In this document: piece after piece, positions 2,501-29,807 of the stretch
Layout: each line of letters opens with the position of its first letter
Numbering within the stretch: position 1 is the first letter of the stretch
Source of the DNA: a virus
Lineage: Duplodnaviria > Caudoviricetes
Strand: one strand, 5' to 3'
IMG/VR virus record: IMGVR_UViG_3300017658_000231
Coordinates: 1 to 31,288 of that record
DNA length: 31,288 nt
Position numbers and translations under genes: made by a program
The notes under the pieces: model-generated
Database searches by the model: none
Told to the model about the DNA's origin: nothing
What the model saw: the letters and a program-made list of their open reading frames with translations, nothing else

Positions 2501-2509
2501 GCTCTGCGG

Positions 2510-2517
2510 CATAACTA
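2510..2517 (+). promoter_or_regulatory. Putative late-promoter box CATAACTA
   Basis: Downstream of a terminator, 8 nt before the HNH ATG, no SD. Confidence 0.5.
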
Positions 2518-2525
2518 CTAACGAT

Positions 2526-2819
2526 ATGGCAGATCGCATCAAGACTTTCAATCCGTTTCCCAAAGCTCAACCGAGCATCCAGCGACGGGAATCCACGAAC
2601 TGGTATCACCGATCTCGCTGGTTGAAACTCCGGCAAACCAAACTGCGGCTCAACCCAGTTTGCGAAAATCCTGAGTGCCAAGCTTGGGAAGACCTGCATG
2701 TTCATCATGTGCTTCCACGAAAGACTCATCCCGAACTTTCATACCAATTGGAGAATCTCAGAACCCTTTGCCGGTCATGTCACAGCAAGGAGGAGGCACG
2801 ATGCAACGAATCAGCATAG
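2526..2819 (+). CDS. HNH endonuclease (packaging-associated, HK97 gp74-like)
   Basis: WY...RWLKLR, CENPEC, VHHVLP, ENLRTLCRSCHSK; start reassigned to ATG 2526. Confidence 0.9.
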   Translation: MADRIKTFNPFPKAQPSIQRRESTNWYHRSRWLKLRQTKLRLNPVCENPECQAWEDLHVHHVLPRKTHPELSYQLENLRTLCRSCHSKEEARCNESA

Positions 2820-2980
2820 GGAAAGCGGCGAAGCTCTTGTCGGTTCATCCTGACACGCTCAGGAAGTGGGAGCAGCAGGGTTTCCTGCGATCTGTCCGCA
2901 CACTAGGGGGACATCGGCGATACTTACTCACCGATATCGAGACATTGCTCACCAGCGATGAGGAGGAGGCACGATGCAAC
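2788..2980 (+). repeat. 20-bp direct repeat AGGAGGAGGCACGATGCAAC (2788-2807 and 2961-2980)
   Basis: Exact match read directly; each copy holds an SD and an ATG. Confidence 0.9.
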
Positions 2981-2998
2981 CAACAGAAATCAAACTGA
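2801..2998 (+). CDS. MerR-type HTH protein (excisionase/RDF-like)
   Basis: ISIGKAAKLLSVHPDTLRKWEQQG..RTLGGHRRY; strong SD AGGAGG. Confidence 0.85.
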   Translation: MQRISIGKAAKLLSVHPDTLRKWEQQGFLRSVRTLGGHRRYLLTDIETLLTSDEEEARCNQQKSN

Positions 2999-3204
2999 AC
3001 GTCGAGATCGACTTGTCTCAGAAGCAACTCAATCTTGTCCAATACGCAATCAACAAGCACGCATGGTTTCACGCAACAAGACTCATGCAACAAATCCCCA
3101 TGACGATCAGATTATCAGACAAGGAAGCACTAACGATATTTCCATTCAAGGACATCAACACAAAACAATTCTGGAAGCTATTGGGAGTCAAGGAATGCAA
3201 GTAG
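2974..3204 (+). CDS. Hypothetical protein
   Basis: SD AGGAGG, overlaps neighbours in operon fashion. Confidence 0.6.
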   Translation: MQPTEIKLNVEIDLSQKQLNLVQYAINKHAWFHATRLMQQIPMTIRLSDKEALTIFPFKDINTKQFWKLLGVKECK

Positions 3205-3422
3205 GAGATCAAGCGAGATTGAAGTCGGGCGGTCCAGTGATGACCGTCTACGAGATCAAAGAAGACAGGATCAACTGTCAATGGTTCGATGGGGCCAAGC
3301 TCAAACAATCTGACTTCACCAGATTGATGCTTGTGCCCCATCCCCAACCAGACGACCGCATTGACCAACTGGACAGAGAGACAGATGAACTGCTCATGCA
3401 GTTGAAGGAGATTGACTTATGA
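3195..3422 (+). CDS. DUF2158/YodC-family small protein
   Basis: VGDQARLKSGGPVMTV...CQWFDG; start ATG 3195. Confidence 0.8.
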   Translation: MQVGDQARLKSGGPVMTVYEIKEDRINCQWFDGAKLKQSDFTRLMLVPHPQPDDRIDQLDRETDELLMQLKEIDL

Positions 3423-3604
3423 ATCCAGACATGAGTTTTGCAGAGTATGCAGCGATGGAACGAATGTTTGCTGATGACCACTTCAATTGGTTGAGACAAC
3501 GGGAGTTCATGCTTGAACAACAACGGGAGTTCATGCGGATTCTCTCGGAAGATTGTCAGTACAACAATGAAAAACAACACGACTGGAAGCATGAAGGCTT
3601 CTAA
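3419..3604 (+). CDS. Hypothetical protein
   Basis: AAGGAG SD, ATGA overlap with upstream gene, internal QREFM duplication. Confidence 0.55.
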   Translation: MNPDMSFAEYAAMERMFADDHFNWLRQREFMLEQQREFMRILSEDCQYNNEKQHDWKHEGF

Positions 3605-3616
3605 ACAAGGAGATCA

Positions 3617-3796: not shown

Positions 3797-3805
3797 ACCG
3801 ATCCC

Positions 3806-3822
3806 GATACAATTTTTGTATT
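3806..3822. promoter_or_regulatory. 17-bp palindrome copy (GATACAATTTTTGTATT)
   Basis: Immediately after the RHH stop codon. Confidence 0.7.
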
Positions 3823-3966
3823 GGCGATGGTCTCCCCAGACGAGCCACGATTGATCCGAGACGGGATCAGTGCCAACCATCGTTCAAGACAATGGAACAC
3901 AACCATGGAGACCGTGGGAGACGTGGGGGCGAGATGGCTGGTCGATGGGCGACCAGCGGGACGCAT

Positions 3967-4906: not shown

Positions 4907-4914
4907 CCTATATA
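4907..4914 (+). promoter_or_regulatory. Putative late-promoter box CCTATATA
   Basis: 8 nt before the terS ATG, no SD. Confidence 0.4.
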
Positions 4915-4922
4915 CCACTTGA

Positions 4923-5402
4923 ATGCCCAAAGGTAAACCCCCACGACCGACCAAACTCCAAGTTGCACTCAAAGGCGATCCATCAAATCGTCGAGGCAAT
5001 ACAACTGAACCCGAAGCCCCAAGAGGCTGGCCCGAGTGTCCTGAACATGTTGCCGATGACTTCATCGCTCATGAAGAATGGAGATCAGTCTGTAAGCAAC
5101 TCGACTCGATGGACCTGCTATCCACAACCGACGCCCGTTCCCTTGAACTCTATTGTCTGACGTATTCTCGTTTTCGTGCGGCTCAGGAACAAGTCAAGAA
5201 GCACGGTGATGTTCTGTTTCTTGGCAAGAACAAATACCCACAGGTCTCACCGTTCTATACCTGCATGAACAAATACCATGAGGACTGTCGGAAGTGGTTG
5301 ATCGAATTTGGTCTGACACCTGCCGCTCGTGCCCGCTTGCGAGTGAAGGTTGAAGAAAAATCGAACAACAAATGGAGCGGGATTTTGCCGGTTGCGGGAT
5401 AA
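4923..5402 (+). CDS. terS: Terminase small subunit, P27 family
   Basis: GKPPRPTKLQVALKGDP..R, LELYC..Y, EFGLTPAARARL. Confidence 0.92.
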   Translation: MPKGKPPRPTKLQVALKGDPSNRRGNTTEPEAPRGWPECPEHVADDFIAHEEWRSVCKQLDSMDLLSTTDARSLELYCLTYSRFRAAQEQVKKHGDVLFLGKNKYPQVSPFYTCMNKYHEDCRKWLIEFGLTPAARARLRVKVEEKSNNKWSGILPVAG

Positions 5403-5407
5403 AGCTT

Positions 5408-5560: not shown

Positions 5561-5615
5561 GAAAAACAAAAAAACCCCGTTAGGAGTTTCCTTTGAGTGA
5601 AACTCCTAACGGGGT
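5561..5615 (-). terminator. Leader terminator/attenuator hairpin
   Basis: Perfect 17-bp stem (5574-5590 with 5599-5615), followed on the minus strand by TTTTTTGTTTTTC. Confidence 0.75.
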
Positions 5616-5640
5616 CGGTTGTTCCGTTTCCGTGCAGGTG

Positions 5641-5669: not shown

Positions 5670-5687
5670 GAAAAAATCGGAAGTTTC

Positions 5688-5695
5688 CATAACTA
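5688..5695 (+). promoter_or_regulatory. Putative late-promoter box CATAACTA
   Basis: 4 nt before GTG 5700 of terL. Confidence 0.55.
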
Positions 5696-5699
5696 CCAT

Positions 5700-7256
5700 G
5701 TGGAACTTTCAGACAAATCAATCCAGTTCATCGAGAACCTGACTCTCATTGGCGACCATGCCGGTAAGCCTTTTGTGCTTCGACCATTTCAGAAGCAGAT
5801 TCTCAACGCTCTGTTTCGTACACGAGACGGCGAGCGGATCGTCTCGAAGATGTTCCTGCTGTTGCCACGCAAGAACGGAAAATCTCAAATCGCAGCGGCA
5901 ATCTGCCTCTTCTCATTGCTCTGCCTCGGTCAGAGCCAACAGATTCTCAGTGCGGCAGCGACACAGGAACAGGCATCCCGAATCTTCGATGCCATGTGTG
6001 AGATGATCCGTGCTGATGCAACCCTCAGCAAACTCTGCGAGATCATCCCAAGTAAACATCGGATCGTCTGCGAAGCCACCAACAGCTTCTACTGTGCAGT
6101 CACTTCTGGCGGCGATGCCCTCTTGGGTTATTCGCCTACTCTGGTTGTTCTGGACGAATTGGAAGCGTTCACTCAGCCAAAACATCGACGACTCCATGCC
6201 GCTCTGACAACAGGGTTCGGAGCCAGAGCAAACCCTCTAACAATTCTGATCTCCACTCAAACGAGCGATAAGAATTCGTTGGCAAATGAGGAGTTCGAAT
6301 TTTCAAGAAATTTGAAGGGAAGAATCGAAAATTCGAAGGTGAAGAGATCAGGTCAGTATCAGAACGAGAAGTATCTGGCTTGTCTTTATTTTGCCGATGA
6401 GAAAGCAGACTGGACGGATCGAAAAGTCTGGAAGGCGGTCAATCCTGCATTGGGGGACTATCTGAATGAAGACTTCCTTGAGGAAGAGTTCAAGATCGCC
6501 CAGAAAATTCCATCACGCCAGAATCATTTCAAGCAATTCTATCTCAATGTTCCCATCGATTCGCTTGGGAAATGGATGGACATGAGTTTGTGGAACTCAT
6601 GCAAAGGGACATCACCTGATCTCACCCCGTACAAGTGTTGGGGCGGTCTTGATCTTGCTCCGGTCAATGATCTCTCAGCGTTCGTGCTGTTGTTCGACGT
6701 GGAAGGAATCTATCACGTCAAGTCATGGTTCTGGTGTCCAGAAGCAGACATCATGGAGCGTAGCAAAATCTCGCAAGTTCCCTACGACTATTGGAAGGAT
6801 CAAGGGCATCTGCGAGTCTGCTCAGGTTCATCGACAGACTTCCGCCAAGTCAGAAAAGAGATCGCTGAGATTTGCGAGCAGTATCGTTTGCAAACTATCG
6901 CTGCGGATAGGTCATTTGCTTACGACGTGGCACAAGGTCTGATTGAAGACGGTTTCAATGTGGAGTGGTATCGGCCCGGATATGAAAGCATGTCCCGCCC
7001 AACCATGAGGTTGGAAAAACTGGTCAAGGATTCCGAGATCATTCACACGGGACAACCCGTGATGGACTACTGCATGTCCAATGTCGTTTGTGAAAGTGAC
7101 GCCGCTGGGAATGTCAGACCATCCAATAAACTCCGCAGAAAGCAGGACAAGATCGATGGGGCGATCAGCCTGATTTATGCTTTGGGAGTTGCGATGTGGG
7201 ATCAGCCAAAAGTGCAGCCAAGTGTTTACGAGACAAGAGGCATATTTTGCGTCTAG
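5700..7256 (+). CDS. terL: Terminase large subunit
   Basis: Walker A PRKNGKS, Walker B VVLDE, nuclease GGLDLA and KIDGA; start probably GTG 5700. Confidence 0.95.
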   Translation: MELSDKSIQFIENLTLIGDHAGKPFVLRPFQKQILNALFRTRDGERIVSKMFLLLPRKNGKSQIAAAICLFSLLCLGQSQQILSAAATQEQASRIFDAMCEMIRADATLSKLCEIIPSKHRIVCEATNSFYCAVTSGGDALLGYSPTLVVLDELEAFTQPKHRRLHAALTTGFGARANPLTILISTQTSDKNSLANEEFEFSRNLKGRIENSKVKRSGQYQNEKYLACLYFADEKADWTDRKVWKAVNPALGDYLNEDFLEEEFKIAQKIPSRQNHFKQFYLNVPIDSLGKWMDMSLWNSCKGTSPDLTPYKCWGGLDLAPVNDLSAFVLLFDVEGIYHVKSWFWCPEADIMERSKISQVPYDYWKDQGHLRVCSGSSTDFRQVRKEIAEICEQYRLQTIAADRSFAYDVAQGLIEDGFNVEWYRPGYESMSRPTMRLEKLVKDSEIIHTGQPVMDYCMSNVVCESDAAGNVRPSNKLRRKQDKIDGAISLIYALGVAMWDQPKVQPSVYETRGIFCV

Positions 7257-7258
7257 GA

Positions 7259-7266
7259 CATACATA
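7259..7266 (+). promoter_or_regulatory. Putative late-promoter box CATACATA
   Basis: 4 nt before the portal ATG. Confidence 0.55.
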
Positions 7267-7270
7267 ACGT

Positions 7271-8917
7271 ATGTTCAAAAACTGGTTCACAAAGAAGTCA
7301 CAAAAGCCTGAAACCTATTCCTCAACTCCGCTCGACGAGTTGATGCGGTTGCAAGCTAATTCTGCTGCTGGCGTGGCGGTCACGGAAACAACCGCACTCA
7401 ATCTTGTCTCCGTCTACGCTTGTGTTCGTGCCATCGCTGAAACATTGGCGTCCATCAGCTTTCCGGTCTATGAGCGACTGGATGGCGGCGGCAAGGGAAG
7501 ACTTCGAGATCATCCGGTTTATCGCCTGCTCAATGTCTCACCGGATGACGAGATTTCTGCGATGCAGTGGCGTGAGAGTGGCATCGGACATTTGCTCACT
7601 TGGGGAAACTGGTACAACGAGATTGAATTCTCCAATGGCGGCGAAGTTCTTGCGGTTCATCTGCTCAATCCAAAAATTGTAACGCCACGAAGAACGAAAT
7701 CAGGACGGATCGAATACAAGCTGGACGGAGTTATTACGCCAATTCCAGCCGAACGAATGCTTCACGTTGCAGGTCTTGGCTACGACGGTTGCGTCGGTTA
7801 TTCACCATGTCGCATGGGCAAGTCAGCAATCTCGCTGGGAATTGCTGCGGAACGCTTCGGGCAAACATGGTTCGGCAATGGAAGTCGAGGACAAGGCTAT
7901 ATCACTCATCCGGGCACTTTGTCAGATCAGGCGAAAGCGAACATCCGAGCGAGCATCGAAGCTGAACATGCCGGACCAGATCAGGCTCATCGCTGGATGA
8001 TTTTTGAGGAGGGAATCCAAGTCGAACAACTGGGAGTTCCACCGGAAGATGCTCAGTTCCTTGCCACGAGATTATTCCAATTGCAGGAAATTTGTCGTCT
8101 CTATCGGATCAGTCCAGCACTCGTTGGCGATCTATCACGCTCGACTTTTTCCAATCAAGAACAGGAGTCCATCAATTTTGTTGTTCACACATTGAGACCG
8201 TGGTGTCGCCGAATAGAAACCCAGATCAATCAACGTCTTTTCAGTCGTGTTGAGCAGGAAACGATCTTCGCCGAGCATCTCTTGGATGGCTTGCTCCGTG
8301 GAGATCAGCAGACCAGATACGCAGCTTATGCAACGGGTCGTCAATGGGGCTGGTTGTCTGCCGATGACATCAACGAACTTGAAAATCGAAATCCGCTACC
8401 TGATGGTCAGGGTAAAGTTTACTTGATACCGCTCAACTTTCAGGACTCCCGAAACCTCATCAAGACCGAACAGCCGACACCAGAACAGCCAGTAGTTCCC
8501 ACGACTCCATCTGACGCAGCGGTCACTGCTTCTCTTGATTGTGTTCAGGACAATATCGACAGGATGTTACGGCGGGAATCGGAAGCCGTCAGGAAAGCAG
8601 CGACCAAGCCCAATGAATTTCTGGACGCTGTTGAGGAGTTCTATTCCTCGTATTCCAAAATTTGTAATCGGGCACTCGAACCCAGCCTGAAAGCATTCGC
8701 TGCCATCAAAGCAGATCAGTTCTCCGATCCAATGCAAAAATTGGATTGTGTCCAGCAGGTGATGGCGGCAACCAGCAACCTTGTTGAATCCGGCAGAAAA
8801 TCCCTGCTTGATCTCTCTGGAACGGTCTCAGCCAAAGACCTGCCCCAAGCGATTGAGAAATGGACCATCGACAGAGCCACGGTCTCTAAGGAAATCATAA
8901 AGGAGATAAGACAATGA
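7271..8917 (+). CDS. Portal protein, HK97 family, with C-terminal extension
   Basis: VYACVRAIAE, HLLTWGNWY, GYSP, DAQFLATR, EICRLYRI, TLRPW, NELENRNP. Confidence 0.95.
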   Translation: MFKNWFTKKSQKPETYSSTPLDELMRLQANSAAGVAVTETTALNLVSVYACVRAIAETLASISFPVYERLDGGGKGRLRDHPVYRLLNVSPDDEISAMQWRESGIGHLLTWGNWYNEIEFSNGGEVLAVHLLNPKIVTPRRTKSGRIEYKLDGVITPIPAERMLHVAGLGYDGCVGYSPCRMGKSAISLGIAAERFGQTWFGNGSRGQGYITHPGTLSDQAKANIRASIEAEHAGPDQAHRWMIFEEGIQVEQLGVPPEDAQFLATRLFQLQEICRLYRISPALVGDLSRSTFSNQEQESINFVVHTLRPWCRRIETQINQRLFSRVEQETIFAEHLLDGLLRGDQQTRYAAYATGRQWGWLSADDINELENRNPLPDGQGKVYLIPLNFQDSRNLIKTEQPTPEQPVVPTTPSDAAVTASLDCVQDNIDRMLRRESEAVRKAATKPNEFLDAVEEFYSSYSKICNRALEPSLKAFAAIKADQFSDPMQKLDCVQQVMAATSNLVESGRKSLLDLSGTVSAKDLPQAIEKWTIDRATVSKEIIKEIRQ

Positions 8918-9525
8918 ACCAAAACATAGAACGATATTTCACAACAAGTCAAATTGAATTCAACAACCCAGACGAGGGAAGCAAATCCGCAGGACGATTG
9001 AGCGGATATGTCACCCGCTGGAACACCTTGTCTCACGATAGAGGCGGTTACAAGGATGTCTTCCGTCCCGATGCCTTCGCCAATCTGGTTGATCCAGATG
9101 CGGACGTGAAGGCGTATCAGGACCACAACTATTCGATCTATCTTGGAAGAACATCCAATCAATCATTGAAACTTTCGATGGATGCTGAGGGCGTCAGGTT
9201 CTCTCTTGACCTGCCGGACACGCAACATGGCAGAGACACCGCTGCCCTGATGTCCCGCAATGATTTCAACGGGATGAGCTTCGGCTATCTCCCCGACAAA
9301 TACCAACTGGTCAGAACACCGGAGGGAATTGTCAGGGAACATACGAGCGGCACACTCATTGAGGTCTCAGTTGTCTTCGACCCAGCCTTTGAGAATTCAT
9401 CTGTTGAACTCAATGCACTGGATGAACCACCGGAAGAAGTCCTGCAAGAGATCAGGGAATTTCTGGCGACACCAAAACTCAATTCTGCCAAGAGAAAATT
9501 GGAACTCGCCAGCATAGATAACTGA
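8914..9525 (+). CDS. Prohead protease, HK97 family
   Basis: LSGY, DHN..YLGRT, GMSFGY, LIEVSVV.DPAF. Confidence 0.92.
   Translation: MNQNIERYFTTSQIEFNNPDEGSKSAGRLSGYVTRWNTLSHDRGGYKDVFRPDAFANLVDPDADVKAYQDHNYSIYLGRTSNQSLKLSMDAEGVRFSLDLPDTQHGRDTAALMSRNDFNGMSFGYLPDKYQLVRTPEGIVREHTSGTLIEVSVVFDPAFENSSVELNALDEPPEEVLQEIREFLATPKLNSAKRKLELASIDN
9513..9520 (+). promoter_or_regulatory. Putative late-promoter box CATAGATA upstream of capsid leader
   Basis: Same octamer as at 11490 and 19596. Confidence 0.4.
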
Positions 9526-11057: not shown

Positions 11058-11074
11058 ATTACAATTTTTGTATT
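11058..11074. promoter_or_regulatory. 17-bp palindrome copy (ATTACAATTTTTGTATT)
   Basis: Between terminator and late box. Confidence 0.7.
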
Positions 11075-11080
11075 GGTTTC

Positions 11081-11088
11081 TCTAACTA
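11081..11088 (+). promoter_or_regulatory. Putative late-promoter box TCTAACTA
   Basis: Downstream of a strong terminator, 4 nt before ATG 11093, no SD. Confidence 0.5.
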
Positions 11089-11092
11089 TCAC

Positions 11093-11494
11093 ATGAAACT
11101 CGAACAAATCATCTATCTCTTGGAGCCGACCTTGATCGGCAATAAATGGCTCGAAACCGGCGAACTCGTGGACTGCGGTTGCAGGGAACGAGCGAAGAAA
11201 TTGCAGAATGATGGCATCTGTTTTGTCGTGGCGTGTGCCCCTGCTTTCGCTCAATTTCTCAAAGACAATCCTGATGGCGAATGGATTGAGTGCGAGCAGT
11301 TTCTCGCACGGGTGAAGACATTCCCGCTGGAATGGAGAACTCCCGAATGGGAGGCATTGGTGTCTCAGTTCGATTCCAGTATTGATCGGTTCATCTCGGT
11401 GAACATCACGGTCAATGGTGAGGATGTGGAACCGGAAGTGGTCGAAGAAAAACCCCAGCCGAAGCCCAAGAGGAAACGAGTGAAGAAGTCATAG
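11093..11494 (+). CDS. Hypothetical protein (head region)
   Basis: Position after capsid; basic C-terminal tail. Confidence 0.7.
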   Translation: MKLEQIIYLLEPTLIGNKWLETGELVDCGCRERAKKLQNDGICFVVACAPAFAQFLKDNPDGEWIECEQFLARVKTFPLEWRTPEWEALVSQFDSSIDRFISVNITVNGEDVEPEVVEEKPQPKPKRKRVKKS

Positions 11495-11497
11495 ATA
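11490..11497 (+). promoter_or_regulatory. Putative late-promoter box CATAGATA
   Basis: 4 nt before ATG 11502. Confidence 0.55.
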
Positions 11498-11501
11498 GTG
11501 C

Positions 11502-12071
11502 ATGGAATATCATGTTGTCACCGAACCGACCGAACCCATTGATCTCACACTCGTCAAGACTCACTGTCATATCGACCATGATGTAGAAGACGACTATCTT
11601 TCGCTGCTCATTTCAGCGGCGAGAAAATACGCTGAGAACTACTGCCAGCTTTCAATCGGCGAGCAAACTCTTGTTCTGACAGCCTCAGAATTTCCAAATG
11701 GTATGAGACGACCGGCTGAGAAAATCTATCGCTATCTGCCGCAACCACCACTCATCAGCGTGGATTTTGTCAAGTATTACTCCAACTCGGTCCTGACCAC
11801 TTGGGACAGTTCTGAATACCGGCTTGATCTGTCAATGCCCGGAAATATCGTGCCGGTGAACTGTTTCCCGTCCGTCGATTGCCGACCTGATGCGGTGCAA
11901 ATCCAGTGGGTTGCAGGCAAAACAGCAAGTGAGAACATCAAGCTGGCTTGCCTGATTATGGTCTCACATTGGTATACGACGAGAGAACCGATTGTCACGG
12001 GAACGATTGTGGCGAAAGTTCCGTGGTCGGCTCATGCCCTGCTGGATCGTGAAAAGTGGGGTTCGTACTGA
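11502..12071 (+). CDS. Head-tail connector (gp6/phiE125 gp8-like)
   Basis: EPIDLTLVKTHCHID..EDDYLSLLISAAR..AE, IKLACLIMVSHWYTTRE. Confidence 0.9.
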   Translation: MEYHVVTEPTEPIDLTLVKTHCHIDHDVEDDYLSLLISAARKYAENYCQLSIGEQTLVLTASEFPNGMRRPAEKIYRYLPQPPLISVDFVKYYSNSVLTTWDSSEYRLDLSMPGNIVPVNCFPSVDCRPDAVQIQWVAGKTASENIKLACLIMVSHWYTTREPIVTGTIVAKVPWSAHALLDREKWGSY

Positions 12072-12448: not shown

Positions 12449-12926
12449 TGGCTGGCAGGTTTCTGGGATCAAGGAAATTGAGTTTGTTTTTGACAACTTC
12501 ATCAAAAAGGAAGCTCAGAAGATCATCAAGCGTGCCATGAAAACCGAACTGACGCCGATGGCAAATGAGATCAGAGCGAACTTTCCGAAGGACACCGGCA
12601 AGACTGCGAAGGAAATCAAGCCACGCATGAGAACCAAGCGAGGCGTGATCTTTGTTGATATCAGTTCCAAAGACAACAACTACATTCCCAAGTTCATCGA
12701 ATTCGGAACGGTCGATCATGCTGGCAATCAGACTTCCAAACCCTCTTCCATCGGCTCGTTGATCTCAGGTTTGTTTGGAACGACCGACCATGCTGGGAAT
12801 TGGCATATCAAGCCTCATCACACTTTCGGGAATGTCTTCAAACATCGGGGCGAACAGGTCAAGAAGAGAATGATCGAAAGAATCCTGCATGATGCCCAAG
12901 ACAAACTGAATCCATTTAATGATTGA
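12441..12926 (+). CDS. HK97 gp10-like neck/tail component
   Basis: VSGIKE, PKDTG, KFIEFGT, IKPHH; position in gene order. Confidence 0.85.
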   Translation: MSNGWQVSGIKEIEFVFDNFIKKEAQKIIKRAMKTELTPMANEIRANFPKDTGKTAKEIKPRMRTKRGVIFVDISSKDNNYIPKFIEFGTVDHAGNQTSKPSSIGSLISGLFGTTDHAGNWHIKPHHTFGNVFKHRGEQVKKRMIERILHDAQDKLNPFND

Positions 12927-12930
12927 GACT

Positions 12931-12938
12931 CATACATA
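12931..12938 (+). promoter_or_regulatory. Putative late-promoter box CATACATA in ATG-occluding hairpin
   Basis: 5 nt before ATG 12944; stem ACTCATAC/GTATGAGT. Confidence 0.55.
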
Positions 12939-12943
12939 AAAGT

Positions 12944-13330
12944 ATGAGTGCGGAAGTCATTGTCTGGAATCTGGTCAAGGATATCACGGAGCGGGTCTAT
13001 CTCTCGACTGCGCCCCATAACCCCACGAAACCGTTCCTGCTGGTGACGCTGGTGTCGGGCACACATGAGCATGTCTTAGGCGGTGCTGCCGGTGTTCTGA
13101 ATGCCGAGTTCCAGTTCGATGCCATTTCTGATGACCTGCACGACGCCATTGAAATGATCGAGTCGGTAAGAAATATCCTTGATGGATACGCAGACGAGAG
13201 CATTCTCTATTCCACAATCCAGTTGGAGCAGGACATGAGCTTGCCCCCGAATGACAGTTCACCCGACTGGCTCTTTCGCAAAGCTGCTCGCTATATGATT
13301 CGGGTCAAGGAATCGATCCCATCTGCATAA
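12944..13330 (+). CDS. Tail terminator/completion protein (DUF3168-like)
   Basis: RVY..TAP...KPF, FQFD, VRNILDGY; position before tail tube. Confidence 0.8.
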   Translation: MSAEVIVWNLVKDITERVYLSTAPHNPTKPFLLVTLVSGTHEHVLGGAAGVLNAEFQFDAISDDLHDAIEMIESVRNILDGYADESILYSTIQLEQDMSLPPNDSSPDWLFRKAARYMIRVKESIPSA

Positions 13331-13364
13331 ATAAAACAACCACTTATACACGAGGTTGTTTTAT
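13326..13364 (+). promoter_or_regulatory. Late box CATAAATA overlapping an RBS-occluding hairpin
   Basis: Box 13326-13333; perfect 11-bp stem ATAAAACAACC/GGTTGTTTTAT ending at the ATG. Confidence 0.65.
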
Positions 13365-13787
13365 ATGCCACTTAACACATACGCAGGCGCACAATGCACC
13401 TTCTCTTATGACGGAACAGCGATTGGCGGAATTGTCGATCTTGCTCCATCCGGCTTCTCACGTCCCGCTGTCAAAAATACAGCGATGGGCGATACATCCC
13501 AGAGCTATCGAGCATCAACACAATTCGACGGCGGAACTGTCGATGTCACTGTCAATTACGATCCCGCTGACGCCGGACATACCAAACTCAGAACCGATGT
13601 CAGAACGGCAGTCACCGCAGCGAAGGCGTGCGTCATCACTTATCACGACGGCAGCACAGATACGTTCAACGGGTTCGCCACGAACGAAGTCATCAGCAAC
13701 ATGACCAACGATGACACCGACAACTTACAAGCGAAGTTCACGATTCAGGTTGTGGGAGCCAGTGTCTTTGCCGCCGACTCAACATGA
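13365..13787 (+). CDS. Tail tube (major tail) protein
   Basis: DGGTVDVTVNYDPAD.GH, ITYHDGSTDTFNGF; position in gene order. Confidence 0.88.
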   Translation: MPLNTYAGAQCTFSYDGTAIGGIVDLAPSGFSRPAVKNTAMGDTSQSYRASTQFDGGTVDVTVNYDPADAGHTKLRTDVRTAVTAAKACVITYHDGSTDTFNGFATNEVISNMTNDDTDNLQAKFTIQVVGASVFAADST

Positions 13788-13830: not shown

Positions 13831-14151
13831 ATGATTACCAGAGAAACGCTTGATTCGATCAAGCCCAAAGTGAGAACAACCCCGCTCGACATGACCGCCG
13901 AATGGGGCATCACTGTCTTCGTCAAATGTCCCACCGGAGAAGATGAGATTGCACTCAGAACCACCGAAGACCTGATGCGTCATCAGATATGTGTCGGGCT
14001 TTGTGATGAAGAAGGCAACTGTCTGTATCACTATCCCGAAGATGTTGATGCACTCAACAAATTTCCGACGATTGATCTGATGAAGATTTTTGAGGCGATC
14101 AATGATTGCTCCACACTGCGGGGCAAGGTGAACCACGCTAAAAAAAACTGA
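13831..14151 (+). CDS. Tail assembly chaperone (gpG-like)
   Basis: Between tube and TMP; LCDEEGN; ends AKKN at a slippery site. Confidence 0.85.
   Translation: MITRETLDSIKPKVRTTPLDMTAEWGITVFVKCPTGEDEIALRTTEDLMRHQICVGLCDEEGNCLYHYPEDVDALNKFPTIDLMKIFEAINDCSTLRGKVNHAKKN
14142..14148 (+). promoter_or_regulatory. -1 ribosomal frameshift heptamer A AAA AAC
   Basis: -1 frame (CTG AGA GAT GAT CCG TCC GAA ATG...) is open into ORF 14169-14441. Confidence 0.85.
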
Positions 14152-14441
14152 GAGATGATCCGTCCGAAATGTTCGTGATGGATTTATCTCGTCGGTTGAA
14201 TAAGACTTGGCGTGAAACAGTTTCCTTGCTTGAAGATGAGGACGAACTCGTGATGCAACTGGCATACAACCAGATCAAGCCAATGGAAGACTGGTGGGAG
14301 ATGTGGGCTTGCCTCTTCGAGAGTCAGGTTCAGCAAGGGAAGAAGTTCAATCACCTTCAATGGATACCCGGAGAGAAAACACCGCCCAAACCTGTTGATA
14401 GTGAGACGATCAAAAAACGGATGTCCGTACTGAGGACATAG
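14148..14441 (+). CDS. gpT-like frameshift extension of tail chaperone
   Basis: Reached by -1 shift; LSRRLNKTWRE. Confidence 0.75.
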   Translation: MRDDPSEMFVMDLSRRLNKTWRETVSLLEDEDELVMQLAYNQIKPMEDWWEMWACLFESQVQQGKKFNHLQWIPGEKTPPKPVDSETIKKRMSVLRT

Positions 14442-16707: not shown

Positions 16708-16723
16708 TTTCCATTCCAATTGG

Positions 16724-16731
16724 AATAGATA
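16724..16731 (+). promoter_or_regulatory. Putative late-promoter box AATAGATA
   Basis: 4 nt before ATG 16736. Confidence 0.5.
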
Positions 16732-16735
16732 GTTC

Positions 16736-18287: not shown

Positions 18288-19588
18288 TCTACGATGACAG
18301 ATACGATCTGGCGGAATCGACTCCCAAGCCGGAAGGCGAGCGGTATTCTTTCCTGTTGATGGACCTGAATGGTCGCTACCAGTTTTCGAGCCGGTCCAAC
18401 TTCGCCGAATACCTTGAGCTATCCACATCACGGGTCTGCATTTTTGACAACGACAATATCGGCGTTCTCAGGAACAAATATGTTTCGGGAGTGGGAACAT
18501 GGCATTACGGGCTGCTGGATGGGAATGGCAAGCCGCAGCAGGAAGAGATCACGATGCTGGAGGACTACGAACTGCTTTCGGGTGTCTGGCGATTGAGCGA
18601 TGAAAAGTTCGCCATCAACATCTTTGATGCTCCCGATGAGACTGAAAGCTGGCGAGGGATCAACTGGCTGATCTTCTCACCAGACGGAACTTACAAAGAG
18701 ACTCACTTTTCAGACACTCTCAACACAATTCTGTCGTGGTTCGTGTCGGAAAATGGAGATGTCTACTGTCTGCGACTGGATGACCTGATTCTTTCGGTGG
18801 ATCACTGGAGCTATGACTCCGAGGAGATCACCAGCACAACTATTGATGATGACTTCTATTCTTCGGAGTCAATCTGGCAGTGGGACGGGGGATCAATCCC
18901 CTACCAGAGCCAGTGCAAATTCTGCATCGTTGATGGTGAAGTCTACCGCTTGGCGAAAAATCTGAGTTTTGCCACATCCCATACTTGGGTTGTCAGCGAG
19001 AACCATGAAGCCAATCTGGGCGGGAGGATTGATGGTCTGCTCTATCGTGACTCTTACCTGTGGATATTGGCGCAGGCGAGTTCGTCCACATGGAAGCTGC
19101 ACAAGCTGAACCCTGACCTGACCACCGCCGCTGTGTCGGAAGTCCTGACAATCCCCAGCGGTACGACCGTCCGACCTCTCATGAGCCATGACTCGGGAAA
19201 GATTCTGGTGAACTGGATCAATGGCAACACCGACGATCCCAACGTCATCTGTCTGAATGATGACTGCGAGGTGCTGTGGTCCGGCTTACCAGAAGAACTG
19301 CGAACGGACAGGTCATCACTCAATCAGATCACATGGATCGAGAATGGATATGTCTGGGCGATGGTGAACTGGCAGGTGGACAAACTGGAGGACTGGTGCG
19401 AACAAAAGGACTGGCTTGTTTGTTGTTCCGCCGAATCGGGTGAGATGAGGTGGCGGCATCGTTTCACACGGGGAGACACCTTTCAGGTGATGTCAGTTGG
19501 AAATCTGGTGGCGAACGCTGTCTATCAGGAGAAGAGCTTCGGGGGTTGTGATTCTGAGCTTCTTCATCCTGATGAGGACGAATTGTGA
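18284..19588 (+). CDS. Putative tail/receptor-binding protein, possibly beta-propeller
   Basis: ATGA overlap; Trp-rich with repeated (D/S)G..W motifs such as ESGEMRWR. Confidence 0.6.
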   Translation: MIYDDRYDLAESTPKPEGERYSFLLMDLNGRYQFSSRSNFAEYLELSTSRVCIFDNDNIGVLRNKYVSGVGTWHYGLLDGNGKPQQEEITMLEDYELLSGVWRLSDEKFAINIFDAPDETESWRGINWLIFSPDGTYKETHFSDTLNTILSWFVSENGDVYCLRLDDLILSVDHWSYDSEEITSTTIDDDFYSSESIWQWDGGSIPYQSQCKFCIVDGEVYRLAKNLSFATSHTWVVSENHEANLGGRIDGLLYRDSYLWILAQASSSTWKLHKLNPDLTTAAVSEVLTIPSGTTVRPLMSHDSGKILVNWINGNTDDPNVICLNDDCEVLWSGLPEELRTDRSSLNQITWIENGYVWAMVNWQVDKLEDWCEQKDWLVCCSAESGEMRWRHRFTRGDTFQVMSVGNLVANAVYQEKSFGGCDSELLHPDEDEL

Positions 19589-19595
19589 TTGGACT

Positions 19596-19603
19596 CATAG
19601 ATA
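19596..19603 (+). promoter_or_regulatory. Putative late-promoter box CATAGATA
   Basis: 4 nt before ATG 19608; CATAG/CTATG stem. Confidence 0.55.
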
Positions 19604-19607
19604 GACT

Positions 19608-20975
19608 ATGCCTTTCGACGACAACATTTTCTGGAATAGCAACGAACAAAACGCAAAGAAACTTTTGCAACAAGGCAGGAAATGGGGAAAGAAGCCCGAA
19701 GCCCAACCGGACTTTGCACCACTATCCGACAAACTGCAAGAAGTCGCTGCCAAGCTGGCGGAACAAGGCATCTGGACCGATCCCCAAGTCAGCGAGATTG
19801 AAGCCTATCAGAATTTCGTGCGGGTGTGGGACGCTGTGGAGCGAGGCGACAATATCACGTTGTCCGCCTTGTCTGGTGGATATGGATATGGCGATTCTTA
19901 CGATGAGACAGCAGAAGGTGGCGTCCTTGTTGGTGGTGGAAGCAGACGTTCCATCATCTATACTGAGGATGGAACTTGCGGGGAAGTCGAATATCTGGAC
20001 GATGATTGTTACTACACAGATTCAGACTTTGACTCTCACACAGTGGGCAGCACTGGACAAGTTCATATCACTGCCACAGCATTCTTTCGAGAATGCACGC
20101 TGAATCTATATGACAGTGATTCCACTTCTATCACTTACTATTGGACCGATGGAACGGATTATGTCGAACTCTATTTTTCAGAAGGCTTGATACGCTGTTC
20201 TTATTCCGTCGATGGCTTCATTCCGTATATTGCGGAACATGTTCCCGACGACAAGCCGGACATGTTCAACAAGCTGGACTTTGGATTCAGCTTTACTTGG
20301 TATGACATCAATGTCATTTGGGACGGTGGGAATTGTGTCTTCGGCACGCTCCCCTGCCAGAAGGTCGCCACGGGTGGACTGCTCGCTGGCGGAAGTGCAG
20401 TGGTCCTCAGCGGTGATGTCTTCCACGAAGTGGCTGATGGTGGTGTCTTCGCCGGTGGGGAGTGTTCCCACACAATCATTGCATGGGAGAGCGCTACGGG
20501 CGGATTGCTGGCGGCTGGTGAAGCCGACTTGGAAGTGGTCCAGATGGTCGGGGGACTGGTTGCTGGTGGCAGTGCCACTGTCTCAACCAGACTGAGCGGA
20601 ATGTCTCTGGGCGGAATGCTGGCAGGTGGGGAGTGTTCCAATACAAAAATTGTATTGGAGACGGCGGCGGGGGGAGTGGTCGCTGGGGGAGCGGCAACCC
20701 TGCCGAACTCCGCTGGTTATCTCTACCGGACCACGCTGACGATAGCGGCGGAACAACTGACTGCTGATCTGCATTCGTTTTATGTTGGCAAGGTGGTTGC
20801 TCTGCCGGTGGAACTCCCACTGGATTCGACCTTTCTTGTCACAGACATTCACGGCAACATCAAAGACCACGAGATCAGGAACTTCGATGGTTCGACGGTC
20901 TGGATTTTCTTCCGTGCTGACCTGTCTGCTTCCATCGACAACGAATTTTTCGTGTTCTCGGGAGGAAATCCATGA
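19608..20975 (+). CDS. Gly-rich repeat virion protein with C-terminal DUF2341-like domain
   Basis: About seven GGxxxGG repeats; C-terminal YRTTLTI...DHEIRNFDG..WIFFRADLS. Confidence 0.65.
   Translation: MPFDDNIFWNSNEQNAKKLLQQGRKWGKKPEAQPDFAPLSDKLQEVAAKLAEQGIWTDPQVSEIEAYQNFVRVWDAVERGDNITLSALSGGYGYGDSYDETAEGGVLVGGGSRRSIIYTEDGTCGEVEYLDDDCYYTDSDFDSHTVGSTGQVHITATAFFRECTLNLYDSDSTSITYYWTDGTDYVELYFSEGLIRCSYSVDGFIPYIAEHVPDDKPDMFNKLDFGFSFTWYDINVIWDGGNCVFGTLPCQKVATGGLLAGGSAVVLSGDVFHEVADGGVFAGGECSHTIIAWESATGGLLAAGEADLEVVQMVGGLVAGGSATVSTRLSGMSLGGMLAGGECSNTKIVLETAAGGVVAGGAATLPNSAGYLYRTTLTIAAEQLTADLHSFYVGKVVALPVELPLDSTFLVTDIHGNIKDHEIRNFDGSTVWIFFRADLSASIDNEFFVFSGGNP
20640..20656. promoter_or_regulatory. 17-bp palindrome copy (intragenic; 10-bp arms 20637-20659)
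   Basis: TCCAATACAA-AAA-TTGTATTGGA. Confidence 0.65.
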
Positions 20976-21799: not shown

Positions 21800-21816
21800 G
21801 ACACAAAAATTGTATT
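21800..21816. promoter_or_regulatory. 17-bp palindrome copy (GACACAAAAATTGTATT)
   Basis: Upstream of the sigma-like gene. Confidence 0.65.
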
Positions 21817-21823
21817 GGCAACC

Positions 21824-21831
21824 CTTACCTA
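21824..21831 (+). promoter_or_regulatory. Putative late-promoter box CTTACCTA
   Basis: 4 nt before ATG 21836, no SD. Confidence 0.4.
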
Positions 21832-21835
21832 TTGT

Positions 21836-22285
21836 ATGTGGATATCCAAGACCGAACTGGCAAACGAAATCAACCTGATGACAGTCTCAGGACGGGCATC
21901 GGAACGTCTTGGCAGAATGTTGCTGCTGATCGCAGATGGTGCGGCAAGGAGATATGCAACGGGTTTGGAGCATGATGAGGCGGTCGCAAGTGCGGTCTGT
22001 CATCTGTTGGGCGTGATCGACAGATACGATCCCCACAAGTCTGATGCGTTCTCCTACGTCACCACCATCTGTATCAATCGCTTCCTGCACATGAGGCGTG
22101 AAGTGAGATTTCGCAACGCCCTGCTGGCACATGTCAGATACGAGATGGGCGGCGAGGACTTTCGACCCGAAATTCCAAAATACAAAAATTGCATTGGTTG
22201 CGGGAAAGAAAAACCGGCGTCTGCATTCGGGCAGGATTTCATTCGTGGGTTGGCGAACAAATGCAAAAATTGTAATCGGCGGTGA
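21836..22285 (+). CDS. T4 gp55-like minimal sigma factor (region 2) with C-terminal CxxC..CxxC zinc finger
   Basis: WISKTEL, ERLGRMLLLIA, DEAVASAV, IDRYDPHKSDAFSYVTTICINRFL match the gp55-family pattern as recalled; CIGC...CKNC. Confidence 0.7.
   Translation: MWISKTELANEINLMTVSGRASERLGRMLLLIADGAARRYATGLEHDEAVASAVCHLLGVIDRYDPHKSDAFSYVTTICINRFLHMRREVRFRNALLAHVRYEMGGEDFRPEIPKYKNCIGCGKEKPASAFGQDFIRGLANKCKNCNRR
22179..22276. promoter_or_regulatory. Two palindrome copies inside the sigma gene (22179-22195, 22260-22276)
   Basis: AATACAAAAATTGCATT and AATGCAAAAATTGTAAT. Confidence 0.55.
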
Positions 22286-26954: not shown

Positions 26955-27539
26955 TCAAGCCGCCACGGCAAAGACCAGTTTCGATCTGAGATCGTCCAGT
27001 TTGCTCTGGATCAATTCCAACTGTTCCCGAGCAGCACCATGCTCATCTGGATCAATCACGATCCCAGATAACAACTGGACGACTTGCACCAGCTTCCCAA
27101 CTCCCGTCAGTTTGATCTCTGGTTCAGATTGTTCTTCTTCACCATTGCCCAGCACATGTTCTGCCGTCTGACGAATCAGCTTGGCGGTGATGGGTTGGGG
27201 AACGTGAGACACAAGGTCAAGGACCGCCTGCCAAACTTTCTTCTGCGGTTCAGCATGTCTCAGTCGGACCAGTTCTCTTGTTTGTCCTTCACATGTCGGC
27301 AGCACCTTGAAATCAGCAAGGTTCATCAAGGCTCGTGCTGCATTCTTGTACCTGCTGACATCGGCTTGATTCATTCCGAATTCGACTTCGCAAAACCCAA
27401 CCAGAGACTTGTGAGATGTCTTCCAGAGTTTTCGTCTGTCGATCTCATAGATGGCGTTCGCCGTCTGGAAGAAAGCCTGTTGTCCTTTCTTGATGATGGT
27501 GAGGAGTTGTTCGTCTGTCTTCCTTGAAAAGTCACTCAT
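26955..27539 (-). CDS. Hypothetical phage/mobile-element protein
   Basis: AFFQTANAIYEIDRRKLWKTSH...FC..EFG, LPTCEGQTREL, VWQ; GGAG SD before ATG 27539. Confidence 0.7.
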   Translation of the reverse strand: MSDFSRKTDEQLLTIIKKGQQAFFQTANAIYEIDRRKLWKTSHKSLVGFCEVEFGMNQADVSRYKNAARALMNLADFKVLPTCEGQTRELVRLRHAEPQKKVWQAVLDLVSHVPQPITAKLIRQTAEHVLGNGEEEQSEPEIKLTGVGKLVQVVQLLSGIVIDPDEHGAAREQLELIQSKLDDLRSKLVFAVAA

Positions 27540-27706
27540 GGTCTTCTCCAAATTTTGGAGTTGCTTCCGACCTGCTTCCTCGCTTGAGGAGGCAAAAAAA
27601 GTCGTCTGCTCATAAGAACCTGCGGATCGCCCCATCTGGTCAAAACTGGTCAAAACTTTTATTCTGCTCTGAAAACATCAGGTCTCAGCATTCAGTGGTG
27701 AGCGTC

Positions 27707-28405
27707 ATGGATCGTGAAGTTTTCAGAGACAACCTGCGGCGACTGGCGGCAGCACAAGGACTCGACTTCGATGGCTTGGCAATCAAGATCGGTCTCATCG
27801 ATGCAGATAAGAAATGGTTGCGACGACTCTGGAACGATGGGCTGCAGGCGATCAACAAACGAAGATCAAACCAATTGGAAAATCTCGCTGCTCATCTCCG
27901 TCTTCCCTCAATCGATCAGTTGTGGCAAACGAACACCGGCAAACGTGAGGAGATCGAAAAACTCGCAACCAGAGCTTTCGATGTCATCAGGCAGATAGAC
28001 AAACTGAGATCGTTCTTCCCTGACGAGATGAGAACAATCGCCAGCGAGTTTCGCAGCGAGCGAGCATTCGTGGCCGAGTGGATTTGTGACGATTACGGCT
28101 TGGCTCAGTCATCACAAATCAAAGAAGTGCGAGAACGAATCAGAGTCTTGACAGCGGAACGTGAAGATGACTCAGATGTGAGCGAGATTATCGAAGCCCT
28201 CCAAGCCAATGTCAAAGAGTGGGATTATTGGTTGTGGAGCATTGGAGGCGAAAAGATGGCGAAGCATCTCATCAAGGAACAGTGGCGAGACGCCGTTCTC
28301 CAAGCAGAGAAAACAGACATGCCATTGACTCCTGATCTTTTCGCTAAGGTATTCCGGCAGCGACATTTTCCAGACATGGGAGAAAAATTTGTCGCTGAAT
28401 CCTAG
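27707..28405 (+). CDS. XRE-like HTH protein (candidate repressor)
   Basis: FRDNLRRLAAAQGL...LAIKIG...LENLAAHLRL.IDQLW; divergent from gene 27539. Confidence 0.55.
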   Translation: MDREVFRDNLRRLAAAQGLDFDGLAIKIGLIDADKKWLRRLWNDGLQAINKRRSNQLENLAAHLRLPSIDQLWQTNTGKREEIEKLATRAFDVIRQIDKLRSFFPDEMRTIASEFRSERAFVAEWICDDYGLAQSSQIKEVRERIRVLTAEREDDSDVSEIIEALQANVKEWDYWLWSIGGEKMAKHLIKEQWRDAVLQAEKTDMPLTPDLFAKVFRQRHFPDMGEKFVAES

Positions 28406-28454
28406 CATTGCAATAAGAACTGATATTCGACACACCTGAGTAGGACCGGGCAGA

Positions 28455-29291
28455 ATGACAAAACTTCGAATAGTTGGACTAAGTTTCCTAACAGTCGTAA
28501 TTTTTGCGGTGTTTGCCGCCTTACCGTTCACCGTTCCAGAAAGAATTACTGGACTGAAGCCGAATGAGTTCGGGGATGCTTTTGGTTCCGTCAATGCTTT
28601 CATGTCGTTTCTGGCATTCGTTGGGGTGTTAGTCACGTTGGCGATGCAGCGTGAAGAACTGGAACTTCAGCGAAATGAAATGCGAGAGAGCAAAGAGGAA
28701 TTGAAGCGAAGTGCAGATGCTCAGAAGGAAATGATTGAAATGCAACTGTGCAATTCCTATTTGCACGGATTATCCACATTGGTTCAACATGACGACATGG
28801 TTAAAAGCTCTCCAGTGCTGCGAGAGCAACCCAGTGAGACATTTCAAGATGTAAACGGTCTCCGACATTTAATGCAAAGGATCGAAGAAGATGTGCATCG
28901 TATTCTTTTCCGCCGTCCCGTGAATGTCGAAGAAGTTTCCTATGGACTGTATAAGGTTGTGGATTTATTTGAAAGTGACATGAAATCGGATGTTTTACCA
29001 GATGTGTGGGAGACAATGGATGAGATTTATGGAAGAATCGCTCGAATGGTTCCGGCACTGAAAGAAAGCGATGATCCTAGAGGAAAACGGTTGGCCAGCA
29101 TAATTTATGGTCCATTCTTTATGCTCAAGCATACTCTGCAAAGCTATCTAGAAGGTTCTTCGGAGATCGAGGTCGATGAAATATGGGAACGACACGAAAA
29201 GCTTCGTCGTGAATTAGAGGTTCTCAACTCGCAATACCCGCCTTCTGACTCTTTGAAATCACAATACCCGCTTCCAGATGACGAAAAATGA
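28455..29291 (+). CDS. Two-TM membrane protein with N-terminus resembling putative abortive-infection (putAbiC-like) proteins
   Basis: NEFGDAFGSVNAFMSFLAFVGVLVTLAMQREELELQR coiled coil. Confidence 0.6.
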   Translation: MTKLRIVGLSFLTVVIFAVFAALPFTVPERITGLKPNEFGDAFGSVNAFMSFLAFVGVLVTLAMQREELELQRNEMRESKEELKRSADAQKEMIEMQLCNSYLHGLSTLVQHDDMVKSSPVLREQPSETFQDVNGLRHLMQRIEEDVHRILFRRPVNVEEVSYGLYKVVDLFESDMKSDVLPDVWETMDEIYGRIARMVPALKESDDPRGKRLASIIYGPFFMLKHTLQSYLEGSSEIEVDEIWERHEKLRRELEVLNSQYPPSDSLKSQYPLPDDEK

Positions 29292-29302
29292 TCTCTCTGC
29301 TG

Positions 29303-29310
29303 ACTAACTA
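29303..29310 (+). promoter_or_regulatory. Putative late-promoter box ACTAACTA in hairpin loop
   Basis: 5 nt before ATG 29316; stem TGCTGA/TCAGCA. Confidence 0.5.
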
Positions 29311-29315
29311 TCAGC

Positions 29316-29807
29316 ATGAAAGACAGAATCAAATCCCTCAAACGCATCCCAGCTTCCAAGCTGGTTCCTCATCCCAAAAATCATCGTGTCCATTCCGACC
29401 ATCAGAAACGTGCCCTACAAGGTGTCCTTGATGAGATCGGCTGGTCTGATGCCTTGATCGTCAGAGAACACAAAGATGGCTACCAGATTTTAGATGGTCA
29501 TTGTCGCTCCGAATTGACGACCGACAAAATCCCTTGTCTCGTGGTTGATCTGACCGACTACGAAGCGGAACTGTTTCTTGCCTCGTTCGACCATCTCAGC
29601 AGTATGGCTGGCGTCGATCAGAGCAAGCTGGATGAACTTCTCTCTGAGTTGTCCGTCAAGAACGCTGATGTGCAAGCCATGCTGGATGATCTCGCCAGCA
29701 AGACCGAGGAACTCCTGCTTGATGAGGGCAAGGAGTTCGTTGAGTCTTGTGCTGATGACGTGGCGACGATCACTTGTCCGCATTGTGGGGGAATTTTCCC
29801 ACAATGA
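29316..29807 (+). CDS. ParB/Srx N-terminal-domain protein with zinc ribbon
   Basis: [26 protein letters not shown]. Confidence 0.85.

Follow-up and report, generated by a model that had tools for sequence, protein, structure and literature searches.

The viral sequence analysed here, IMG/VR record IMGVR_UViG_3300017658_000231 (Duplodnaviria; Caudoviricetes), is a prophage, an HK97-like temperate siphovirus of Planctomycetaceae, and within its 31,288 nucleotides (nt; 'the window' denotes the whole of this stretch) a short box with the consensus (A/C)TA-N-(A/C)TA is repeated in front of 13 genes, the end of an A/T tract lying at a fixed distance, 15±1 nt, upstream of the box. We consider it probable that box and tract together constitute a promoter repeated gene by gene, combined with a partial hairpin lock on RNA that reads through from upstream. 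Sequence and folding show the motif with two fixed spacings, found in these prophages only, and the hairpins with compensating changes; from them we infer promoter activity, the position of the start point, leaderless translation and the silencing of RNA entering from repressor, moron or host promoters.

The comparison was based on 12 prophage stretches, comprising the window and stretches of host genomes G001, G002, G003, G055 and G223, plus G354; a thirteenth, G001:C93, was left out, having a single doubtful site. Every TA-N-(A/C)-TA in this relatives set was catalogued with the next plausible start and then curated, giving 55 sites that lie 3-8 nt from a start ('leaderless-type') and 21 sites lying 13-141 nt upstream, while the 244 other boxes served as a control. 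Of the 39 curated starts in the window, 9 have the motif ending 4-5 nt ahead of them, where 0.036 would be expected, and in the relatives set the box-to-start spacing is 4-5 nt at 49 of the 55 leaderless-type sites. A Shine-Dalgarno (SD)-like word precedes 1 of the 11 window starts with a box 4-8 nt upstream, compared with 22 of the other 28. The sequence [A/T][A/T]T occurs at -18 to -16 in 38 of 70 non-redundant sites, as against 20 and 25 at the adjacent offsets, 0-11 at all other offsets and 24 of the 244 uncurated boxes; when the AUG is counted as +1 the tract falls at -30 to -26. Between the divergent gene pairs of G055:C5, G354:C96 and G055:C40, with start codons 36, 43 and 61 bp apart, there is one box on each strand, and it is the fixed upstream tract together with these back-to-back boxes that leads us to read the motif as a promoter. 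The box of the HNH gene, moreover, lies less than 20 nt downstream of a terminator (2469-2498).

The box does not conform to TAnnnT; its conserved T occupies the fifth place and is followed by A, leaving no sigma-70-type T in the sixth, and none of the 13 window sites was among the sigma-70-like promoter matches. An origin of the box in stop codons is ruled out by the stop-less variants TACATA, TACCTA and TATCTA. At three loci a box is built on the terS stop codon and followed 3 nt on by the GTG, TTG or ACG of a homologous short open reading frame (ORF; L003 3493-3520, L004 7694-7720, L005 9910-9935). A previous reading of the window from its sequence only (the sequence-only reading) had remarked that the CAT of the box often pairs with the ATG; CA immediately precedes the box in 10 of the 21 sites that lack an adjacent start codon, and CAT is therefore counted as part of the box consensus.

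The same starts bear the box in related prophages, including portal genes of just 26-61% identity as well as terL, adaptor, tape-measure, HNH, methyltransferase and ParB-like genes. The description of these as late or structural genes is too narrow, given that the box also stands before the ParB-like gene, methyltransferases, HNH genes and, in relatives, a replication gene. It was found at none of 24 more distant terL loci and at one site in 280 kb of host DNA, and as far as these sequences go the motif is restricted to these prophages. Searches of viral contigs with two portals and a gp55-like protein returned nothing, and those with the capsid and ParB-like proteins gave a single copy of the window plus distant phages whose homologous starts lack the pattern. 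G002:C6 (L030-L032) is a heavily frameshifted copy of the G002:C19 prophage in which the boxes are retained.

The sequence-only reading proposed that start codons are hidden in hairpins whose 5' arm overlaps or precedes the box, so forming a genome-wide lock. The seven inverted repeats it listed are all present and fold as drawn when each segment is folded alone (HNH -5.4, terL -9.6, portal -7.5, gene 12944 -9.0, gene 19608 -2.0, gene 29316 -5.7 and gene 11093 -2.8 kcal/mol; genes are named by start position). When segments from -30 to +15 at all 39 curated starts were compared with 200 dinucleotide shuffles, folding exceeded background at terL (p 0.02), portal (p 0.02), 12944 (p <0.01) and 29316 (p 0.03), was borderline at 11093 (z -1.8, p about 0.05), and did not exceed it at 19608 (p 0.10) and HNH (p 0.29). 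Among starts with a box 4-8 nt upstream, 4 of 11 reached p≤0.05 with a mean z of -1.36, as against 3 of 28 others with a mean z of -0.19 (Mann-Whitney p 0.010). Hairpins are significant at five of the box genes in the window (terL, portal, 12944, 13365 and 29316) and not at the other eight box sites. Another null, in which box, spacer and coding sequence were held fixed and the 5' flank alone was shuffled (60 shuffles at each of the 55 leaderless-type sites), was exceeded at p≤0.05 by 13 of the 55, and by 12 of the 55 when flanks were swapped between genes. Taken over 34 non-redundant sites of this type, opening the start costs 6.4 kcal/mol on average, compared with 4.6±0.3 in the null (z 5.7), and mean opening at leaderless-type sites falls to 0.85 kcal/mol once the RNA is cut at the start codon. 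The hairpin is thus selected at a subset of sites and not genome-wide, the steadiest cases being terL, portal, tape measure and the ParB-like gene.

The strongest hairpin in the window (z -5.4) was absent from the earlier list and has a different geometry. At the tail-tube gene 13365 (13308-13368, plus strand, as are all the box sites of the window) an A/T tract is followed by a box, 13327-13333, which lies at the base of a 15-bp hairpin (13325-13368) that buries both the SD sequence GAGGT (13352-13356) and the ATG at 13365, while RNA beginning at 13338 is unstructured; cutting the RNA at box+4 lowers the opening cost from 15.4 to 3.0 kcal/mol (p 0.005). The same layout is seen in relatives at tail-tube, capsid and head-protein genes. 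Of 19 testable sites of this SD type, nine reach p≤0.05, with opening costs of 14.7-22.0 kcal/mol falling to 3.0-6.2 after the cut at box+4; by comparison, 47 SD genes without a box average 5.6 kcal/mol. Eight of these nine significant switches have CCTC, CTCC or CCCC as the four bases that follow the box, complementary to the SD sequence.

Among orthologues, the sequence of the stems is not conserved while their pairing is. Compensating changes are seen in related prophages: the stems of four ParB-like orthologues are unrelated in sequence (TGCTGA/TCAGCA, CATACCT/AGGTATG, TGCCCC/GGGGCA and GCA/TGC) and surround the same loop. With these four sequences aligned in one register, three of five pairs have changed on both sides, a score reached in 2 of 500 shuffles, although a slide of -1 scores nearly equally because two orthologues use a shifted register; with p values of 0.02-0.08 in all four, this is the most consistent of the leaderless-type hairpins. 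The pattern also had predictive value. A run of the tract-box-start pattern on five genomes recovered starts in G354 that had not been used in building it, with boxes 4-5 nt before HNH, methyltransferase, terS, terL and three tail-region genes on the G354 contigs. A strict form of the pattern matched 6 of 398 genomes of the family, compared with one match for a reversed-pattern control, and in the five new genomes three matches were phage-type gene starts and two were short ORFs of no known kind. Two of the prophages found in this way, in G136 and G274, have boxes at the portal and adaptor and, as the pattern foretold, fold into a switch at the tail tube of each (15.1 to 3.8 and 14.0 to 3.5 kcal/mol, respectively) and at the capsid gene of G274 (13.3 to 3.5 kcal/mol).

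In the mechanism that we propose, RNA would start 4-5 bases past the box at each box-bearing gene, and a hairpin spanning this start point would hide the start codon or the SD sequence on the longer read-through RNA only. In the first geometry, represented by the portal, terminase, adaptor and ParB-like genes, RNA would begin right at the AUG or GUG, yielding a leaderless message, with the 5' arm of the hairpin upstream of the box. In the second, represented by the tail tube and, in relatives, the capsid, the box would sit at the hairpin base with the next four bases serving as an anti-SD, and the RNA made by the promoter itself would have a leader of 22-31 nt in which the SD is free. One 5' end, at box+4/5, accounts for both geometries. 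The earlier proposal that RNA begun at the box lacks the 5' arm gains indirect support from this, the box being two-part and promoter-like and a cut 4-5 nt past it removing the arm.

Several observations weigh against this mechanism, or at least against its generality. There is no significant hairpin at 42 of the 55 leaderless-type sites, nor at 7 of the 11 starts in the window with a nearby box; among the 34 non-redundant sites, 26 are not significant and 8 are, and 11 are weaker than the median of their own null. Ten of the 19 SD-type sites, including the capsid site of the window, have no switch, and several of these are in an AT-rich prophage where the boxes may be chance occurrences. The stems fold equally well on the opposite strand (the sense strand is stronger at 25 of 55 sites, with G-U pairs numbering 46 of 473 as against 45 of 453), and folding alone therefore does not show that the stems act as RNA; what supports the RNA reading is the match to the SD together with position. 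Counts of compensating pairs are weak with four sequences, and the curated set was picked by eye from an automatic list, its members being related to one another. HK97-like phages do not usually have a promoter ahead of almost every gene in a single operon. As for a reader, the gp55-like gene of the window was not found in the relatives (by protein, family and profile searches of 4-5 host genomes, 146 prophage ORFs and the G136 and G274 stretches), and the host regulon expected of a host sigma factor was not seen in the samples examined. The notion of a genome-wide lock was accordingly overstated: 13 of 55 leaderless-type and 9 of 19 SD-type sites beat their nulls across the 12 stretches, and in the window itself HNH, terS, 11502, 16736, 19608 and 21836 each have a box and no significant hairpin.

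The same data can be read in other ways, and the one we think least probable, indeed very unlikely, is that the hairpins are by-products, either of chance pairing between CAT and ATG or of inverted repeats acting at the level of DNA, as a cruciform or a second promoter on the opposite strand. The absence of strand asymmetry in folding, the lack of significance of most leaderless-type stems and the equal frequency of CA before boxes with no adjacent AUG (10 of 21) all speak for this, and perfect stems do generate a box on the reverse strand, as at the G055:C32 tail tube; yet the sites still exceed nulls in which box, spacer and coding sequence do not change (z 5.7), orthologous stems vary on both sides, and the post-box bases match the SD specifically in 8 of 9 strong switches, a feature that was then predicted in new genomes. 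It is also quite unlikely that the box is an RNA site, at which a nuclease cuts 4-5 nt 3' of the box or a Com-like protein opens the hairpin on a long late transcript. Cleavage at box+4/5 would yield identical folding gains, the box is a period-4 repeat, and it forms exactly the loop at 29316 and at the ParB and portal genes of G055, as is often true of RNA sites read by proteins or nucleases. However, the A/T tract lies outside the hairpin at a fixed helical distance, back-to-back boxes between divergent genes leave no room for other promoters, boxes also stand 15-30 nt behind terminators (HNH), many boxes have no hairpin to open, and a comparison of prophage proteins found no RNA-binding or nuclease gene common to the prophages. 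Less easily set aside, though still rather improbable, is a real promoter whose hairpins set protein stoichiometry or translational coupling during lytic growth, with no lock in the lysogen. If most genes have their own promoter, the bulk of read-through RNA would arise in lytic growth from the boxes upstream; the portal and 12944 stems start at the upstream stop codon (7256 and 12928), where a terminating ribosome could melt them; and leaderless starts belong to low-copy proteins, SD starts to high-copy ones. Set against this, the most consistent leaderless-type hairpin, that of the ParB-like gene, lies right behind the putative repressor and moron, which are likely to be transcribed in the lysogen, and the strongest locks are on the most abundant proteins (tail tube and capsid), where a lytic tuner would not need them.

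If the box is a promoter, as we favour, the question is which factor reads it. The window contains a candidate reader for this phage only, the gp55-like sigma gene 21836 (21836-22285), which encodes 149 amino acids with sigma region 2 only and a C-terminal four-cysteine motif. It matches PHROG 234 (E 6e-6) and Pfam Sigma70_r2 (E 7.5e-4), and the best solved structure found with its profile is T4 gp55 (E 2.4e-17); 27 similar proteins are present in a library of 1.8 billion. This protein could be the reader, with relatives using undetected diverged copies or a helper in trans, and we note that it carries its own box and that the T4 late promoter, TATAAATA, as given in PMC3014915, fits the box. 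We nevertheless judge this unlikely, given that no counterpart was found in the relatives as described above and that family-wide profile matches, in 22 of 398 genomes with 10 candidates scored in each, were all frames of 254-417 amino acids. To our knowledge, T4 late promoters have no upstream element, a trait not shared by these sites with their fixed A/T tract.

The comparison of prophage proteins likewise revealed no regulator common to all box-bearing prophages. The most widely shared protein, encoded at 26955-27539, occurs in 8 of 13 stretches and has weak ParB/Noc-like fold matches (E 0.4 or worse), being a DUF3102-like neighbour by its features; it was rejected as a common reader on account of this weak resemblance to DNA-binding proteins and its absence from the G136 and G274 stretches. 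In the G136 prophage only an integrase, an excisionase-like ORF and a 534-amino-acid protein are visible beside the virion genes. Because the prophages share no regulator, an alternative sigma factor of the host is the simplest reader, and its holoenzyme is the most likely one; 21836, itself behind a box, may be a private amplifier in this phage. In the host, a box with its tract was found upstream of none of 5 recA and 11 groES loci, and none of 29 loci of larger alternative sigmas has the full geometry upstream. A host-wide signal was rejected, matches being at or below reversed-pattern controls in most genomes; one scan exceeded its controls (24 vs 15 and 13 vs 9), partly through prophage sites. 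Recurrent host matches, CATAACTA, proved to encode LHNYHD within a large family of host genes, which we take to be DUF1559. Two host genes, for an M50 peptidase (L249 4326-4337) and a CheB-type methylesterase (L250 7154-7165), do have the full tract-box-start geometry and could be host targets or chance matches. A broader proposition, which we hold only tentatively and with more doubt than belief, is that a single alternative sigma of the host has been given control of the lytic switch by unrelated prophages of Planctomycetaceae, with per-gene promoters not of sigma-70 type written anew before captured genes (21-30% identity) and nested hairpins tying translation to each gene's own promoter. 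Were this so, the late operon would be dissolved, no phage activator would be needed, inserted genes would be tolerated in either orientation, and a captured T4 gp55-like sigma would be an optional self-amplifier.

The 31.3-kb window sits within a 103-kb metagenome contig, its terminase is 76-81% identical to loci in Planctomycetaceae genomes, and it carries genes for integrase, HNH, terminase, portal, protease, capsid, connector and tail, followed by a sigma-like gene, a putative replication gene, methyltransferases and the ParB-like gene. At the HNH gene (2492-2533) the A/T tract doubles as the U-run of the terminator; the box is at 2511-2517, the start at 2526 and the weak stem at 2503-2533 (p 0.29). 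The terS box, CTATATA (4908-4914 within 4908-4925), lies 8 nt before the ATG at 4923 with no significant hairpin, and in orthologues the box is 5-8 nt before terS. Between terS and terL there is an 18-bp inverted repeat (5573-5616) resembling a minus-strand terminator, and in relatives genes for GmrSD-domain, pentapeptide and STAND-type ATPase proteins are inserted among terS, terL and portal (L003 3465-10525; L156 9494-13131). At terL (5670-5710) the A tract (5671-5676) and box (5689-5695) precede a GTG at 5700, which the hairpin 5679-5710 buries (opening 9.5 kcal/mol, p 0.013); this GTG is the start, as in orthologues, the ATG at 5698 being out of frame. The portal site (7242-7276) has its tract at 7242-7247, box at 7260-7266, ATG at 7271 and hairpin at 7256-7276 (opening 7.9 kcal/mol, p 0.04). 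The capsid site (9495-9520), with an A/T tract and a box at 9514-9520 that is 141 nt before the ATG at 9662, is a candidate leadered promoter without a switch hairpin; in G002:C19 and G223 the box is similarly 80-85 nt upstream of the capsid gene.

Further downstream, gene 11093 (11062-11100) has a box at 11082-11088, its ATG at 11093 and the weak stem noted above, while the box of adaptor gene 11502 (11491-11497 within 11491-11504; ATG 11502) overlaps the stop codon of gene 11093 and has no significant hairpin. The tail-terminator gene 12944 (12914-12949) has an A/T tract, a box at 12932-12938, its ATG at 12944 and a perfect hairpin at 12928-12949 (z -3.7), for which p is 0.066 if shuffling is limited to the 5' flank. 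An A9-like run, AAAAAAAAC, lies at the end of the tail chaperone gene (14145-14169), which in long-tailed phages is the usual site of a -1 frameshift into the next ORF. The tail-region gene 16736 (16707-16738; tract, box 16725-16731, ATG 16736) has no significant hairpin in the tested segment, gene 19608 (19580-19610; tract, box 19597-19603, ATG 19608) merely a 5-bp stem (p 0.10), and the site upstream of 21836 (21805-21838) a box TACCTA (21826-21831) 4 nt before the ATG. The A/T tract at both 11093 and 21836 is provided by a palindrome, TACAA-N3-TTGTA, of which there are 15 copies within and between window genes (2449, 3808, 9600, 11060, 12391, 13800, 15279, 20471, 20642, 21802, 22181, 22262, 24538, 25387 and 31141), 12-18 in the G055:C5, G223 and G274 prophages and none in G002:C19. 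The palindrome is likely to be a binding site for a ParB/Noc-like or repressor protein. A ParB/Noc-like helix-turn-helix protein (26955-27539, minus strand) and a putative repressor (27707-28405, plus strand) form a divergent pair that is relocated as a cassette in relatives, standing between terS and terL in G223 and beside the integrase in G055:C5. At the ParB-like gene 29316 (29284-29318) an A/T tract precedes the hairpin 29298-29316, whose 7-nt loop is the box (29304-29310), with the ATG at 29316 (opening 9.8 kcal/mol, p 0.007). The start of the C5-methyltransferase gene (29774-29815, and in orthologues) has a hairpin without a box (p≤0.05) that overlaps the ParB-like stop codon and is likely to reflect translational coupling.

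Gene control in the temperate phages of Planctomycetes has hardly been studied, and these sites offer for them a first promoter consensus and a first translation switch that can be tested; the box motif already serves as a search tool for such prophages. A device described for just a few genes of T4 would here extend over an entire morphogenesis module, in two geometries from which a single precise 5' end is predicted. Should a host sigma be the reader, this would provide a route to prophage induction without a phage activator and would explain the uptake of defence and moron genes between the terminase, portal and tail genes. The tail-tube leader, on its predicted folding (15-22 falling to 3-6 kcal/mol), is a compact part for separating a gene's own transcripts from read-through ones.

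The two-part layout resembles promoters of sigma factors with extracytoplasmic function (ECF), which have a T-tract at -30 to -26, the position of the A/T tract here if the AUG is +1, and a spacing of 14-17 bp that fits; measured against the promoters described in PMC5758882, however, the A/T tract lacks a conserved AAC core of the -35 type, and the -10 part is not CGT(A/C). Planctomycetes have on average 40 ECFs per genome, according to PMC7826278. Among openly accessible main texts we found no literature on Planctomycete prophage promoters, although a matching consensus may be held in a subscription paper or a supplement, for instance the table of ECF promoters that belongs to PMC7826278, and full-text literature gave no paper that combined leaderless, hairpin and late promoter or late genes. 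In Deinococcus-Thermus, leaderless genes likewise have a promoter box directly before the start codon and no SD, but there, as reported in PMC12340547, the pattern is host-wide, whereas the box described here differs from TAnnnT, is limited to prophages and lies inside occluding hairpins. Unlike the late promoters of Mu C/Mor or P2 Ogr, these sites have no shared activator, and the TACAA-N3-TTGTA palindrome does not occur in G002:C19 and elsewhere keeps no constant distance. The closest parallel is found in T4 e, soc, 49 and I-TevI, and in Aeh1 mobE, where early RNA reading through from upstream folds into a hairpin that covers the SD or AUG and whose 5' arm contains a late promoter (PMC3014915), and the principle of promoter-nested occlusion is thus already known. 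As in T4, the long RNA is predicted to fold away the initiation site and RNA from the nested promoter to lack the 5' arm; the box consensus includes ATAAATA, though it is far more degenerate, and the window phage has a gp55-like gene. In contrast to the T4 cases, the setting is a temperate HK97-like phage and the genes concerned do not encode a few toxic enzymes but terminase, portal, adaptor, tail tube and capsid, with mostly leaderless starts predicted, an upstream A/T tract and a gp55-like gene not found in relatives, all known here from sequence. What is new is a system of 13 copies in one genome, with a box that is not of sigma-70 type, two geometries under one start rule, and no shared phage regulator.

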